DNA of 40,270 bases from a virus (taxonomy: Duplodnaviria; Heunggongvirae; Uroviricota; Caudoviricetes). This document shows positions 2,851 through 10,677 of this stretch, piece after piece. Within the stretch, counting starts at the first letter, position 1. Each line of letters begins with the position of its first letter. Under the pieces are notes generated by a model. It worked only from the letters and a program-made list of their open reading frames with translations, was not told the origin of the DNA and did no database searches. The translations under genes were made by a program, and so were the position numbers. The stretch covers positions 1-40,270 of the IMG/VR virus record IMGVR_UViG_2740892440_000005; one strand, 5' to 3'.

Positions 2851-3490
2851 TCTCGCCATCCTTCACAGTTGTAATCACTACAGCCTTCAAAATCATATGG
2901 CTGTACTGCCAGGTGATTTTTCCGCAATGCGGACAATTCCAACGCACCTTCCCGCTTCGCGACTTCTTTCTTCTGTTCTGATCTTTCAACCAGTCAGGCA
3001 TGACCAAACCTGCGCCCTGAACCATTGTTCTGCGGTTAAAGTTATTGATATTGAACGTCCGGCGCTTTGCTGCATCAGCAATGGGAAATGGCAACCAAAC
3101 TATTCCTGGTTCGTTTTTGTTGGCGACGCTAAAGATGGTCGCTTTACTGAAGTCATCTGTTGGCAATCCACCGTGTTGAAGCCAGTAAACATCGTTGCCG
3201 TTCCAGCTACCTTTTTTGTAGGCCACATACGCAGTGCAATCTGACTCAATCAGGCTTTCTGTAGGGATGTACTGGCAATCAACGTGCCACACTGCCATTG
3301 CATCCACGCTATCAGCGCAAACAGGCTGATCGATATCTCGACCACAATTCCAGGCTTTTTGGGCTTCTTCCAGCGTGTAAACATGGGCGCGATCGATATC
3401 AGAACTGTAACCATTGCCATTATGGCAATGGAATGAAGCGTTATTGCCCACAGTTTCACGCGAGCACATCATGTAAAAACGGTTAGTCAC
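2840..3490 (-). CDS. Hypothetical protein, Cys/His-rich (216 aa), GTG start
   Basis: GTG start preceded by AAGGAGG; GTGA overlap with upstream gene; CPHCG motif near C-terminus. Confidence 0.55.
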   Translation of the reverse strand: MTNRFYMMCSRETVGNNASFHCHNGNGYSSDIDRAHVYTLEEAQKAWNCGRDIDQPVCADSVDAMAVWHVDCQYIPTESLIESDCTAYVAYKKGSWNGNDVYWLQHGGLPTDDFSKATIFSVANKNEPGIVWLPFPIADAAKRRTFNINNFNRRTMVQGAGLVMPDWLKDQNRRKKSRSGKVRWNCPHCGKITWQYSHMILKAVVITTVKDGENDN

Positions 3491-3999
3491 TGGTTGCCTC
3501 CTTTGCGAAGCTCTGCGGCGAACTCGTTAAGTGATATGTAGCAATCTCCAAATGTTAACGAACCGCTCGACCGCATATGCTCCATAGCCATCTCAACGCC
3601 CTGCGCACGCACTTCAGCCAGGAAAGCGTCGGTGGCTGGGGTGTCTGATTGCAGAGACTTTGCGCGATAGTCATTCCACCCTCTTGCATACATGGGATTA
3701 ACTTGCACGCCATCTTTTACACAATATGCCTGCCCTCCACGGTTGATAACCTTGATTTCGTCCATAGCGCCAGACTTCATCCCCGCACTCTCCGATGCCA
3801 GCGCCGCGCACTTGGCCTCAAGGTTATCAATCGTGATTCCAGCAGAACGACACTCCCGCAACGCCGTTTCCAGTTTTGATTCAAGCTCACCGAACTTACG
3901 CACCAGATATTCAGCGTTTGTTTCGTTAACCTTTAAATCTCGTGGGATGCATTTACCTTTCAGAAAACCATCCATCTCAATTAGTGACATTTGTTTCAT
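3487..3999 (-). CDS. Hypothetical protein (170 aa)
   Basis: Track ORF with ATG and GGAGTGGG-like RBS; coupled to downstream gene. Confidence 0.55.
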
Positions 4000-4160
4000 T
4001 TCTTCCCACTCCGCAACATCGCATTCAGATATTTGTTTTGATTCACTGATGGAAAAGAATTTCTCTTAAGCAATTCCTCTCTCGATGGCATTGGCTTTAC
4101 TCGTTGGCGAATAATCATTTCTGCCGGAAGAATGCCGGGATTGTATGCAAGTCCTCTCAT
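3996..4160 (-). CDS. Small hypothetical protein (54 aa from internal Met)
   Basis: GAGGA RBS 7 nt upstream of internal Met MRGLAYNPG...; the longer track ORF start has no RBS. Confidence 0.3.
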
Positions 4161-6730: not shown

Positions 6731-7699
6731 TTAGTAGGTTATTTTTGTTGCGAATACTTCGCCTTTTACGATGGCTGTTATGATATTTTTAGCAACATCT
6801 TCTGATGCGCCAACCTTGATAAGGTCAGCAAGTATTTTGTTATTTACTTCTTTCCGGTGAGCTTTATCCTTTGCTCTGCGCTCTTCTTCGTCCTTGATTC
6901 TTTTTTCTTCTGCTATTCTGGCTTGCTCTTTTGCTTCAGCCTCGCGACGGATTCGTTCAGCATCCTCCTGTGCTTTTCGGCGTTCTGCTTCAATTGCCGC
7001 CTGCTTTTCTCTTTCAGCTCGTTCTGCTGCCTCTTTTGCTTCGCGCTGTGCTCGTTGCTCGGCTTCAATGCGTTCACGCTCTGCACGTTCCGCTGCGGCC
7101 TTAGCTTCTGCTTCTCGCCTTGCTGCTGCTTCAATTTCGGCTTTTGCCTTTGCTTCGGCTTCAGCTCTGGCTTTCTCTTCAGCTTCTTTTTTTAAGCGTT
7201 CTTCATGCTCTCGCTTTTCCTGCTCCGCTTTGAGTCTTGCCTCTTCTCTTTGGCGGTCAAATTCGCGATCCATCAAAATCGCTATTTCATGGTCAGACTC
7301 AATTTGCTTTGCGAGAGCTTCAGCTGCTGCCTTAGCTTCTTCTTCGGCTTTAATCCGCGCCTGTTCTTCCTCATAATCAGTAAGAGGCTGGCGTGCCTTG
7401 GCTTTCAGCTCATCAAGGCGATCACGCACTGTCTTGCGGTTGGCATCAATTAGCTTTGGAATTTCCTTCAGTTCAGCAACAAGGTCTTTTCCAAGACCAT
7501 CGAGATATGTTTTCGTCTGCGCAACTTTATACGCCAGAGAAGCGATCTCCTTTCTGCCCTTTGCCGTTGTGATATCAGGCACAAAGGACATAACTTCACG
7601 TTCAACCTTTTGAAGGATTTCTTCAATCTGGTCGGCAGACTGAAATACAGTCATTGCATTTGCTTTTTCAATAACAACTAAATCTGTTACTTCACTCAT
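6731..7699 (-). CDS. DUF1351-like phage protein with long charged helical segment (322 aa)
   Basis: N-terminal domain resembles DUF1351 as I recall it; GGAGG RBS 4 nt upstream of ATG. Confidence 0.6.
   Translation of the reverse strand: MSEVTDLVVIEKANAMTVFQSADQIEEILQKVEREVMSFVPDITTAKGRKEIASLAYKVAQTKTYLDGLGKDLVAELKEIPKLIDANRKTVRDRLDELKAKARQPLTDYEEEQARIKAEEEAKAAAEALAKQIESDHEIAILMDREFDRQREEARLKAEQEKREHEERLKKEAEEKARAEAEAKAKAEIEAAARREAEAKAAAERAERERIEAEQRAQREAKEAAERAEREKQAAIEAERRKAQEDAERIRREAEAKEQARIAEEKRIKDEEERRAKDKAHRKEVNNKILADLIKVGASEDVAKNIITAIVKGEVFATKITY
6877..7282 (-). repeat. Low-complexity E/A/R/K-rich coding segment (about 135 aa)
   Basis: Translation is almost entirely E, A, R, K (AEAEAKAKAEIEAAARREAEAK...), typical of a single alpha-helix or coiled coil; also generates spurious antisense ORFs. 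Confidence 0.6.
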
Positions 7700-7915: not shown

Positions 7916-8542
7916 CTACCCGTAAAGCAGGAAGTGCTGCACTTGCTTTATCTGCTTCTTTTTGTAGTAACTCTTTGCTTTCAGGCCAAAATTCAATAAG
8001 TCGCTTATTGGTAGTAACTCTTTGCTTTCAGGCCAAACTTCAATAAGTCGCTTAACTGTTGTGACTGAGTTCAAAGCAGCCCATACATTTGATTCGATAT
8101 CCTTTTTCAAGGCATCAAGGTTTTGTTGCAATGCGCAGATTTCATCAAACCTTTTTGTTATTTCGTGTTCTGCGTCAAACATGCATTTATCTTTGGTTGG
8201 AGTAGGGAGCAATATATCTTCGCCGTTGCCGTCTTTCCCATATGAATGCCATCCAACCCTTCTGCCAGATACAGTCAGATAAATTGAAGTAGAACGAACA
8301 TCGTATGAGTAAAATGAACATCCCATCTTTCCAAGTTCTTCACTTATAGCTACCAACTTGGATGATAACTGATCCACTTCCTCAGTTTTCTTTTTACCGC
8401 CAAACGCAATAACTCTGGCGTCAAGTGCAAGCTGGTTCTTTAACTTTGTTACTTCTTCAAGTTCAGTGAAAACCCCAGACTTAATTAAAGCGTTACGAGC
8501 GATTTCCTCTTTCATTCTCGTAGTTAAGCGGATTGATGACAT
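7916..8542 (-). CDS. Hypothetical early-left protein (208 aa), 3' end altered by tandem duplication
   Basis: Start at MSSIRLTT with GAGG RBS; a 47-bp direct duplication lies inside the last about 30 codons. Confidence 0.5.
   Translation of the reverse strand: MSSIRLTTRMKEEIARNALIKSGVFTELEEVTKLKNQLALDARVIAFGGKKKTEEVDQLSSKLVAISEELGKMGCSFYSYDVRSTSIYLTVSGRRVGWHSYGKDGNGEDILLPTPTKDKCMFDAEHEITKRFDEICALQQNLDALKKDIESNVWAALNSVTTVKRLIEVWPESKELLPISDLLNFGLKAKSYYKKKQIKQVQHFLLYG
7961..8054. repeat. 47-bp tandem direct duplication (2 copies, 45/47 identical)
   Basis: Copies at 7961-8007 and 8008-8054 (core GTAGTAACTCTTTGCTTTCAGGCCAAA[A/C]TTCAATAAGTCGCTTA) read directly; 47 is not a multiple of 3. Confidence 0.85.
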
Positions 8543-8553
8543 ATTAATTCCTC

Positions 8554-8853
8554 TCAAATAAGTGGTTTGCTGCCTAATTTCATTTTCTGGCGACCAACAC
8601 AAGTCACACCCATTTCACTGCGTGGCTTGCGGTAGTAAATACGGTTCTGTTTACGCTCGACTTCTTCTGCCTTCTTGCAGCGAAGGCTTCCGAGTGATGC
8701 TGCTTTATCTGCTCTGACGCAACCAGAGAGCTTTAGCGCAATCTTTCGCGCCAGTCGCTGTTCTTGCATTGCCTGTTCACGTTGAGCCTGTCTGCGTGCT
8801 CTGCGGCGATTTCTGGCGTTATCGTCAGCCAGATATGTAATGACTACTGTCAT
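8554..8853 (-). CDS. N: N-type transcription antiterminator (99 aa)
   Basis: N-terminal arginine-rich motif NARNRRRARRQAQREQA; first gene downstream of pL/nutL; GGAGG RBS. Confidence 0.7.
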   Translation of the reverse strand: MTVVITYLADDNARNRRRARRQAQREQAMQEQRLARKIALKLSGCVRADKAASLGSLRCKKAEEVERKQNRIYYRKPRSEMGVTCVGRQKMKLGSKPLI

Positions 8854-8960
8854 GTTGACCTCCGATGATTGACTTTGGCGGTGACGCGCCGGGTGCTTAT
8901 CTTCCGGTTTCCGTCGTGCAGCTGCACTTCACGTCACCCCAAAGCCAACTACTCTTTGGT

Positions 8961-9001
8961 TCCCGCATTTCGGCGGGACAATCCCATCAATGTTAAAGAG
9001 C
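8961..9001 (-). promoter_or_regulatory. nutL (boxB hairpin 8961-8978, boxA-like 8993-9001)
   Basis: On the minus strand boxB reads TCCCGC-CGAAAT-GCGGGA, identical to the nutR boxB; boxA-like GCTCTTTA lies upstream. Confidence 0.6.
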
Positions 9002-9047: not shown

Positions 9048-9089
9048 AGAATACTGTAGGTATTTTATTGTGTAAATACCCAAGGTATT
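9048..9089 (-). promoter_or_regulatory. pL promoter with OL operators
   Basis: Minus-strand -35 TTTACA and -10 TATTCT with 17-bp spacer; operators AATAC-N5-GTATT at 9050-9064 and 9075-9089; weaker third site at 9120-9134. Confidence 0.55.
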
Positions 9090-9221
9090 TATTTTTGGTG
9101 AAATAATGATAAGCAAATGAATACAAAGGATATTTATTTTTTTCGGTGTCTGCTTGTTCAGTGCTTTTTATGCGGGATATGTGAAGTGGATCCCGATAGC
9201 TATTGCTGCCGGGATTATAGG

Positions 9222-9590
9222 TTAGTCAGCGAAGGTTAAGACGAGAATTACCTTAATGATGTCTGCTACAACAGACACGGCCATAGATAAACCAAAGACG
9301 ATCCAAGCCACAGTGATGTCTTCACTACCATCGTATAGAGTTCCGTAATCACTGGTGTAAGGCGTAAATGTAGCGCCTTGATACAATAGGTATAAGCTTG
9401 ATCCATAGAGGATAAATGCAGATATCCCTTGTATTGCTATGACAACTAGAATCATGAAACGAGCTGATCTATGCGCCCAAGCCTGGCTTATTTTTTCTGA
9501 TAGAGATTTCGCAATAAAAGCATGCGCTAAGCCGTAAATTGTTGAGATTGACAACATCCCCAAAAAGCTTGCTATAGCGGTTCCAACCAT
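9222..9590 (-). CDS. Small polytopic membrane protein (122 aa) immediately downstream of cI
   Basis: Hydrophobic translation with several predicted TM segments; 18-nt gap from cI stop, same strand, so likely co-transcribed in the lysogen. Confidence 0.6.
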   Translation of the reverse strand: MVGTAIASFLGMLSISTIYGLAHAFIAKSLSEKISQAWAHRSARFMILVVIAIQGISAFILYGSSLYLLYQGATFTPYTSDYGTLYDGSEDITVAWIVFGLSMAVSVVADIIKVILVLTFAD

Positions 9591-9608
9591 AAGCGCCCCC
9601 TTGCGTGA

Positions 9609-10325
9609 TCAAACCAGTCTGAGTTTTGTCTCAATTGCAACGCCTATAATCTTGCAGTTTCCATTGATTGGCACGAGAGGCCATGCAGGATTAAGTCCCT
9701 TGAGGTATTTATTTCCGCCGTCGATTATCAGCTTCTTGAATGTTGCTTCGTTAGAGTCAGAAAGTTTTGCTATGACCAAGCTGCCGTTGATCGCCTCCCT
9801 TCCGGTATCGAAAAGAACGAATGTTCCCTCTGGAATGCTTAACCCAACCGGTGCCGTCATTGAATCACCTTCCACTTTAAGCCAAAACGCATTACCTTGA
9901 ATATGCGCGTCAGACTCAAGCCAAACATCTATGTCTTTAATGGTGTATGGTTCGCATGCTTCACACCACGAGCCAGCCTGGATACTGCTTAACACCGGAT
10001 ACCTCTTTCCTGCTCTGTATTCCCCTGCATACCTTACGTTGGCATCGCTCTTAAGGCTTTCTGCCTGTTCTGCAACCTTGGCAGCAATTGACTGGCTAAA
10101 ATCAGCAATTGAGACTTGCAACAATCGTGCAAAACCAGATGCAACCTCAACGTTTAGCGCGTTTCTGCCATTAAGATAATGCCCTACCGCTCCTTGGGTG
10201 ATACCCAGTTCATCAGCGATTGAGTATTGGGTTATTCCCAATTCTTTCTTTTTTGACTCATACAAAGCCTTAAGCCGCTTAGCGTCTTCGAGCTGTTCTG
10301 TCGTCAGTGATTTTTTATTTTCCAT
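9609..10325 (-). CDS. cI: CI-type prophage repressor (238 aa), HTH plus S24 autopeptidase domain
   Basis: N-terminus LTTEQLEDAKRLKALYESKKKELGITQ and C-terminal EGDSMTAP...TFKKLI are closely lambda-cI-like. Confidence 0.9.
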   Translation of the reverse strand: MENKKSLTTEQLEDAKRLKALYESKKKELGITQYSIADELGITQGAVGHYLNGRNALNVEVASGFARLLQVSIADFSQSIAAKVAEQAESLKSDANVRYAGEYRAGKRYPVLSSIQAGSWCEACEPYTIKDIDVWLESDAHIQGNAFWLKVEGDSMTAPVGLSIPEGTFVLFDTGREAINGSLVIAKLSDSNEATFKKLIIDGGNKYLKGLNPAWPLVPINGNCKIIGVAIETKLRLV

Positions 10326-10336
10326 AGCTTAATTCT

Positions 10337-10402
10337 AATAGCTAAGGTACTTAAACTAAAAATACCCTGAGTATTGATTGCTTTGAATACCTGTAGTATT
10401 CT
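10337..10402. promoter_or_regulatory. OR operators with overlapping pR (and presumably pRM)
   Basis: Three sites AATAC-N5-GTATT at 10337-10351 (imperfect), 10361-10375, 10386-10400, spaced 24-25 bp; pR -35 TTGATT (10374-10379) and -10 TATTCT (10397-10402). Confidence 0.6.
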
Positions 10403-10632: not shown

Positions 10633-10677
10633 CGCTCTTTAACAGTCATGGTCCTCATTCCCGCCGAAATGCGGGAA
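10633..10677 (+). promoter_or_regulatory. nutR (boxA CGCTCTTTA 10633-10641, boxB hairpin 10658-10677)
   Basis: boxA matches the consensus; boxB stem TTCCCGC/GCGGGAA with loop CGAAAT. Confidence 0.65.

Follow-up and report, generated by a model that had tools for sequence, protein, structure and literature searches.

HkaS, a predicted small inner-membrane protein encoded next to the cI repressor gene of P22-like and lambda-like prophages

The interval between the cI and N genes of lambdoid prophages is among the few places in which the location of a gene is enough to predict that lysogens express it constitutively. This interval, in which rexAB and bstA are found, is a hotspot of mosaic diversity, and the slot after cI is a recognised site of prophage-expressed anti-phage cargo (PMC8585504). 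A further gene in this slot, hkaS, is described here from a stretch of caudoviricete DNA of 40,270 nucleotides (nt) (IMG/VR record IMGVR_UViG_2740892440_000005, referred to below as the window). The window belongs to a P22-like (Lederbergvirus-type) prophage or phage, the closest relatives of which are HZ41, IME10, CUS-3 and mEpX2. Judged by its sequence, the minus-strand open reading frame (ORF) at 9222..9590 belongs to the hkaS family of phage HK620, which has been in the databases since 2001 and, as now understood, is an ordinary "hypothetical moron". It is rated here as one of the uncharacterised accessory genes in the repressor operons of temperate phages. The reading preferred, with a probability of about 0.3, is that HkaS may be a stand-alone superinfection-exclusion factor at the inner membrane.

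RexB of lambda is a protein of 144 amino acids (aa) with four transmembrane (TM) segments and both termini in the cytoplasm; its partner is RexA, and a second promoter, pLIT, lies inside rexA (bioRxiv 10.1101/2021.04.19.439022). RexB interacts with CI in two-hybrid assays and tunes the lambda switch, and the 3' end of rexB is required for the function of the terminator tIMM (bioRxiv 10.1101/2021.04.19.439022). Like RexB, which is expressed from the promoter pRM in lysogens, HkaS is a predicted polytopic inner-membrane protein encoded downstream of cI and before the left operators (OL). It differs in having 122 aa, three predicted TM helices, termini predicted to lie on opposite sides of the membrane, no partner and an 18-nt spacer without a promoter. 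The initial annotation had found neither resemblance to RexB nor a rexA gene, and comparison with RexB bears this out (BLASTP E=5.5; hhalign probability 0.2%; phrog_14878 for RexB and phrog_6534 for HkaS). Membership of HkaS in the RexB family was rejected on sequence, on the number of TM segments and on the absence of rexA; the position downstream of cI is shared with that family.

BstA of Salmonella prophage BTP1, a one-gene anti-phage system, is encoded in the same slot after cI and expressed at a high level in lysogens; it localises to sites of phage DNA replication, acts by abortive infection and has a DNA self-immunity element, aba (PMC8585504). HkaS is unlike BstA in being a predicted membrane protein. 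The small inner-membrane proteins gp15 of HK97 and Imm of T4 act at DNA entry; gp15 and SieA of P22 are expressed from the prophage, and SieA is encoded in the ant moron near the tail genes. SieA, an inner-membrane protein that works alone, prevents the delivery of phage DNA (PMC10883804). SieA, gp15 and Imm resemble HkaS as small membrane proteins that need no partner, and they differ in being encoded elsewhere in their genomes and in being tied to particular virion types. The likeness is offered as analogy only, and membership of HkaS in these families is not claimed; apart from phrog_6534, the search for described exclusion families gave no PHROG hit at E<0.08 and no Pfam hit. Sf6 gp38 (gene 38, locus L016 1908-2312) and HK446 gp39, both of phrog_2651, are likewise small envelope-targeted proteins whose genes abut the cI stop codon in the same slot of P22-like phages; these are exported soluble proteins with an N-terminal signal peptide, of a family unrelated to HkaS. 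Other cargo seen beside cI includes an annotated PagP lipid-A acyltransferase in phage Huey (hit H162) and a tetratricopeptide repeat (TPR) protein in Erwinia phage 49.

The closest described relative is HkaS of HK620 itself (NP_112052), with which the protein of the window shares 97% identity. At the DNA level, the 0.8 kb between the end of cI and the start of N match HK620 with 98% identity. The position is also identical, directly after cI and before OL, pL, nutL and N, and nothing material differs. The match to phrog_6534 (E=5.7e-78) covers residues 1-122 of 122. The initial annotation had assigned the gene to an unknown family. The family is in fact already catalogued, as HK620 HkaS and phrog_6534, and what stands of that claim is that it is uncharacterised: PHROG labels it "unknown function", and its relatives in hundreds of genomes are all named "hypothetical protein".

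The hkaS gene begins with ATG, ends with TAA and lies exactly 18 nt (9591-9608) behind cI (9609..10325, minus strand; stop codon TGA at 9611..9609). The cI gene is the first gene of the putative pRM operon. Its product contains HTH_3 (E=8e-10) and Peptidase_S24 (E=5e-24) domains according to Pfam and is 99.6-100% identical to the cI proteins of HK620 and mEpX2. The spacer contains a strong Shine-Dalgarno sequence of the gene's own, AAGGGGG (9602..9596, minus strand), placed 5 nt 5' of the hkaS ATG. Across the 80 related loci that allowed scoring, the spacer is 17-20 nt long. The genes cI and hkaS are the only ones between the right operators (OR) and OL, and rexA is absent from this interval.

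Operators were sought in the whole window with the palindrome AATAC-N5-GTATT at no more than one mismatch. Five matches were found against 0.87 expected by chance, a number reached in none of 100 shuffled sequences, and all five flank the cI-hkaS pair. The OR region (10338..10400) comprises OR1 (10386-10400), OR2 (10361-10375) and a degenerate OR3 (about 10338-10352), assigned from the palindrome search, the sequence and the OR1-3 annotation of HK620. The OL region (9050..9134) comprises OL1 (9050-9064), OL2 (9075-9089) and a third site (9120-9134), assigned from the same search and from the HK620 annotation transferred through the alignment. A sequence resembling pL, TTTACA-17-TATTCT (9048..9076, minus strand; 9/12 in a promoter scan), overlaps OL1 and OL2 and coincides with pL of HK620. 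The positions of gene, operators and pL agree with the initial description of the gene as lying 18 nt after cI, on the same strand, between cI and pL/OL.

A candidate pRM, TTTAGT-17-TAGAAT (10332..10360, minus strand; 8/12 in a custom promoter scan), proposed by analogy with pRM of lambda, has its -35 element at 10360..10355, abutting OR2, and its -10 element at 10337..10332. Its end lies 7 nt from the cI ATG, which would imply a leaderless cI mRNA like that of lambda. Within the cI-hkaS stretch, the promoter scan gave a single internal match, in cI, which is weak (8/12) and not of promoter grade; no separate promoter is thus evident for hkaS. In the HK620 record the cI transcript terminates downstream of hkaS, which means that its annotators took hkaS as part of that transcript. 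The initial annotation had proposed that the gene occupies the rex slot and is probably expressed from pRM, and the pRM-like promoter, the lack of a promoter-grade internal match and the HK620 terminator all fit that proposal. Co-transcription of hkaS with cI is therefore probable and well supported by the anatomy of the locus, and HkaS is probably made in lysogens.

Hydropathy analysis of HkaS gave three hydrophobic spans (approximately residues 3-27, 45-70 and 93-120). The loop at 28-44 carries the basic residues K28, K33, R41 and R44, whereas the loop at 71-92 carries the acidic residues D81, D87, E90 and D91 and no basic residue. Under the positive-inside rule, this charge distribution places the N-terminus outside, loop 1 in the cytoplasm, loop 2 in the periplasm and the C-terminus inside, so that an N-out/C-in topology is probable. 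The AlphaFold2 model, computed from an alignment of eight sequences, has a mean predicted local distance difference test score of 90.9 and contains helices at 2-29, 31-38 (short and cytoplasmic), 41-74 and 89-121; in this model, loop 2 forms a small beta-hairpin. The predicted periplasmic loop is thus acidic, with a hairpin rich in Tyr and Gly. The C-terminus (…LVLTFAD) ends two residues beyond TM3, without a tail. Hydropathy, charge distribution and the model together predict a small inner-membrane protein of three helices, and the three spans and three long helices are as expected from the earlier description of a small polytopic membrane protein.

Conservation within HkaS is concentrated in three invariant clusters. 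The first is the cytoplasmic loop, K-I-x-x-x-W-x-H-x-x-A-R-F; the second comprises the end of TM2 and the periplasmic loop, YLLYQGATFxxYxSxYGxxYxG; and the third is the C-terminal half of TM3 (DIIKVILVLTFAD), D110-I-x-K113-x-ILVLT-x-A. Further invariant positions are Q54 in TM2 and the small-residue motifs G3/A5/S8 and G100/A104. Variability is highest in TM1 and TM2, and both loops and the C-terminal half of TM3 are nearly invariant. Conservation of the loops and the TM3 end while TM1 and TM2 drift points to specific contacts beyond membrane insertion. The cytoplasmic loop, KIsQAWAHRxARF, is the best-conserved part when the E. coli and Salmonella alleles are compared.

No function is assigned to HkaS in GenBank, RefSeq, PHROGs, Pfam or NCBIfam, and a literature search on hkaS, the HK620 locus and mEpX2 found no published functional study in the library covered. 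Pfam gave nothing above threshold, only sub-threshold matches of TM composition; the matches to Cation_ATPase_C (18.5 bits against a cut-off of 27.3) and TssN were rejected as compositional. NCBIfam gave no match, including among immunity, transporter and stress families, PADLOC-DB v2 gave zero families at E<=10, and a sequence search of the PDB gave no match. Three fold searches were uninformative, with no Foldseek match at E<=0.001 against BFVD and the PDB. A word-indexed homologue search returned only 11 close relatives. An exhaustive hidden Markov model search of 1.84e9 cluster representatives returned the HkaS cluster itself, one fragment of 44 aa and one RHS/YD-repeat protein of 5949 aa (P0013, residues about 4028-4055). 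The last matches the motif of the periplasmic loop in nine short Tyr/Gly-rich repeat units (E=3e-7) and was rejected as a chance match, because it reflects the compositional resemblance of Tyr/Gly-rich beta-hairpins. HkaS is a genuine orphan family confined to Enterobacterales prophages, with members in E. coli, Salmonella, Enterobacter, Hafnia and Buttiauxella.

Two functional classes of similar layout were also considered. A class I holin of the lambda S type has a similar topology, but HkaS lacks a C-terminal tail, is encoded in the immunity region and matches no holin family in Pfam or PHROG, and this assignment was rejected. Immunity to pore-forming colicins of the E1/Ia type was rejected as well, there being no Pfam or NCBIfam match and no linked toxin gene.

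The hkaS ORF is a genuine conserved gene and not a chance ORF, as shown by its low dN/dS, its low pN/pS and the integrity of all 80 copies in IMG/VR, each an intact ORF of 122 codons. Between species, dN/dS (NG86) is 0.17-0.30, with synonymous sites saturated between genera, and pN/pS among 33 alleles is 0.25, with 12, 3 and 18 segregating sites at the first, second and third codon positions, respectively. The gene is under purifying selection. Its frame and its length of 122 codons are kept even at 54-58% protein identity. Diverged alleles, which also lie directly after cI, have been found in Salmonella (58% identity), in a Hafnia-type lineage (81%) and on a metagenome contig (L010, 54%). Synonymous divergence is equal in hkaS and cI (pS 0.43 and 0.48, respectively, when E. 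coli is compared with the Hafnia-type allele, and about 0.8 for each gene when it is compared with Salmonella), which indicates that the two genes diverged together. Non-synonymous change in hkaS is 3-4 times that of cI (pN 0.28 versus 0.08).

Among 5426 complete E. coli genomes, 146 carry hkaS, always on the chromosome and at 95-99% identity. The cI of the window (>=95% identity) is found in the same number of complete E. coli genomes, 146, and in the phage collection hkaS and this cI occur in the same 16 records. In IMG/VR, cI lies 17-19 nt 5' of hkaS in all 79 loci that extend upstream, and hkaS was never found outside a prophage immunity module in the loci examined. Its carriers include P22-like podoviruses, lambda-like siphoviruses (HK630, mEpX2 and HK140) and Shiga toxin (Stx) 2c phages, so it is the immunity module, and no particular virion type, that the gene accompanies. 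The tightness of the linkage is attributed to location: hkaS has cI on one side and, on the other, the OL sites to which the repressor must bind, such that replacement requires two crossovers in very short flanks.

A Buttiauxella prophage (CBCPKK010000004.1) contains a chimeric cI (locus L019 1833-2869). The N-terminal DNA-binding domain of this repressor is unrelated to that of the window (20% identity), cro is different and the operators are also swapped, whereas the C-terminal S24 domain has 86% identity, and an hkaS allele (55% identical) begins 20 nt after this cI. Thus, across two immunity specificities, hkaS has kept its place beside the same cI C-terminal domain. The repressor itself is a case of domain-level recombination inside cI, in which immunity was changed and the downstream cargo kept. 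The linkage is nevertheless not obligatory: cI proteins of 62-71% identity overall, or 76-77% in the C-terminal domain, are accompanied by other cargo or by none, and no diverged hkaS was found after the next-closest cI genes, those of Serratia OS31, Erwinia 49, Cronobacter ENT39118 and E. coli Fostie, CharmingMan and ECONIH4.

In the exclusion mechanism proposed, cI and hkaS would be transcribed jointly from pRM, and from pRE during establishment, and HkaS would be translated from its own Shine-Dalgarno sequence and reside constitutively in the inner membrane of every lysogen. Heteroimmune phages would be hindered in delivering their genomes, whether by direct action of the periplasmic hairpin or because HkaS would occupy a component of the host inner membrane that incoming phages need. 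The protein would not be lethal to the cell and would require no partner. This reading was chosen because HkaS, if constitutive, must be harmless, has neither sensor nor partner and would present a conserved hairpin, acidic and aromatic, on the periplasmic side. The anti-phage cargo already known from the slot, and the action of SieA, gp15 and Imm at DNA entry, speak for it as well. The fast non-synonymous change in hkaS relative to cI is compatible with an interface that tracks changing targets.

Several points weigh against exclusion. The initial annotation had put forward exclusion, abortive infection or membrane remodelling as candidate roles, and none of the computed results demonstrates a role in defence. 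Homology provides no evidence for any function of HkaS, the PADLOC, Pfam, NCBIfam, PDB and fold searches all being uninformative. Known entry blockers target a given virion type, whereas hkaS spans podoviruses, siphoviruses and Stx phages, and its movement with the immunity module across these types implies no class of target. Conservation is equally strong in the cytoplasmic and periplasmic loops, and a mechanism confined to the periplasm would leave this unexplained. The slot also holds cargo that is not obviously anti-phage, such as the PagP-annotated gene of Huey, the exported protein of Sf6 and the TPR protein of Erwinia 49. Expression of HkaS in lysogens is itself inferred from the sequence. 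A broader and equally tentative suggestion is that HkaS founds a new family of single-gene, sensor-less anti-phage proteins of the inner membrane, encoded in lambdoid and P22-like immunity modules and with a mechanism unrelated to those of Rex, Sie and BstA; such proteins would protect lysogens against heteroimmune phages, and their carriers would include the Stx2c phages and, among complete E. coli genomes, about 2.7%. In a rarer variant of this suggestion, HkaS would tether or tune the repressor through the cI C-terminal domain, which it always accompanies.

Of the alternatives, a lysogenic-conversion role in host fitness unrelated to phages is the least improbable, although it is still doubtful. 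HkaS would then act in envelope or stress tolerance, in modulation of a transporter or in immunity to a membrane-active toxin or a pore-forming bacteriocin. The envelope-directed cargo of the slot in Huey and Sf6 would suit such a role, as would the wide occurrence of hkaS in commensal and pathogenic E. coli and in the other four genera. In size and three-TM layout HkaS is also like the E1-type colicin immunity proteins. This role is opposed by the failure of Pfam and NCBIfam to return any immunity, transporter or stress family, by the lack of a linked toxin gene and by the confinement of hkaS to the prophage immunity module.

Two further roles are unlikely, to a similar degree. HkaS could be an abortive-infection effector, a latent membrane-depolarising or lysis-timing protein similar in function to RexB or SieB, which would be triggered at the membrane by a phage holin, by an ejection protein or by the stress of DNA entry; the infected lysogen would then be killed or arrested. 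The slot and presumed promoter are those of lambda rexAB, the invariant polar residues in the TM helices (Q54, S106, D110 and K113) are such as occur in a channel or regulated oligomer, and hkaS evolves faster than cI. Such an effector would nevertheless have only about 17 cytoplasmic and 20 periplasmic loop residues as its sensing surface, and neither a RexA-like sensor nor any further gene in the operon is present. HkaS also shows no similarity to RexB and no PADLOC match, and strong constitutive expression of a pore-former would be risky. With no soluble domain or partner to sense infection, and with non-toxicity required, a passive block of entry fits better than a triggered killer.

The other role is that of a modulator of the prophage's own switch, induction or replication, as in the newer roles of RexB. 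Through its conserved cytoplasmic loop, HkaS would bind cI, or a different cytoplasmic factor, at the membrane and adjust repression, the induction threshold or the activity of a protease (FtsH/ClpXP). The two-hybrid interaction of RexB with CI and its modulation of the lambda switch provide a precedent (bioRxiv 10.1101/2021.04.19.439022). The association of hkaS with cI (146 E. coli genomes, 16 of 16 phage records and 79 of 79 scorable IMG/VR loci), its retention with the 86%-identical C-terminal domain in Buttiauxella despite the swap of DNA-binding domain, cro and operators, and the superior conservation of the cytoplasmic loop between E. coli and Salmonella would all be in keeping with such a role. 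However, position alone explains the linkage, the related cI proteins described above (76-77% in the C-terminal domain, 62-71% overall) lack hkaS, and a loop of 17 residues is a small interface.

That hkaS has no function of its own, as a hitch-hiker between cI and OL or as DNA kept for a role in cis (spacing, or termination of the pRM transcript), is very improbable: position could explain the linkage, and the low pS of the last 30 codons recalls the need for the 3' end of lambda rexB in tIMM function, but the dN/dS of 0.17-0.30 even with synonymous sites saturated between genera, the frame and 122-codon length held at 54-58% identity, the 80 intact copies out of 80 and the 12/3/18 distribution of segregating sites by codon position all contradict it.

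The cI-to-N interval has already been the source of RexAB and BstA, and HkaS is a compact conserved orphan in the same place. It is carried by the laboratory-tractable K-12 phages mEpX2, HK630 and HK140, by HK620 and by Stx-converting phages. Were HkaS to exclude phages, the known defence modules would gain a minimal one made up of a membrane protein only, and phage host range in E. coli and Salmonella would have a further determinant. With any other role, HkaS would be a lysogenic-conversion factor present in about 1 of every 40 sequenced E. coli.

The 3' end of hkaS and the region behind it show some further features. In the last 30 codons (window 9222-9311), pS between E. coli and the Hafnia-type allele is 0.19, against 0.37-0.75 in the other four segments, the sample being small; this could stem from a recent recombination event or from nucleotide-level constraint, such as one on termination. 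A stable hairpin without a U-run (9190..9215, minus strand) begins 7 nt past the stop codon, and RNA folding of the 146-nt stretch that holds it gave z=-2.1. A terminator scan of the minus strand between hkaS and pL returned nothing, and no convincing intrinsic terminator was found there. The tIMM annotated in HK620 (window 9109-9139; locus L001 3451-3481) is a hairpin composed entirely of A and U, and coincides with the third operator-like site, AATACAAAGGATATT (9120-9134, one mismatch). OL3 of the HK620 record (about 9097-9113 in the window) does not fit the operator palindrome.

Beyond pL, the boxB hairpin of nutL, CCCGCCGAAATGCGGG (8962-8977, minus strand), was assigned from the sequence and the nutL annotation of HK620, and is repeated as nutR at 10660-10675. 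The N leader, from the boxB of nutL to the start of N (8854-8960), is modular across related prophages, while the hkaS-OL-pL-nutL part is invariant. Inserts of at least three kinds, GC-rich and structured-looking, occur there in combinations that add about 35 to 455 nt (loci L022, L032, L040, L042, L048, L054 and L080, at about 2870-3700 in each). An Rfam search with the inserts of two of these loci (L040 and L054) matched no family. The leader of the window is the short, insert-free form, and that of one further locus (L021) is 1 nt shorter still.

The left edge of the slot is formed by an N-like antiterminator gene (8554..8853, minus strand), the first gene of the pL operon, which matches phrog_271 (E=4.8e-37) and, below threshold, N_peptide of Pfam. 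The second gene of this operon (7916-8542, minus strand) has its ATG at 8542, 11 nt after the N stop codon, and encodes a protein with nucleotide modification associated domain 5 (Nmad5; Pfam E=8e-59) that belongs to phrog_1965, which is labelled as of unknown function. HK620 carries a different gene, hkaQ, at this position. Another gene of the early-left operon (6731-7699, minus strand) encodes a protein of 322 aa, the middle part of which is of low complexity, extremely charged and rich in E, A, K and R, and is probably a single long helix or coiled coil. The long antisense ORFs over this gene are artefacts of its composition.

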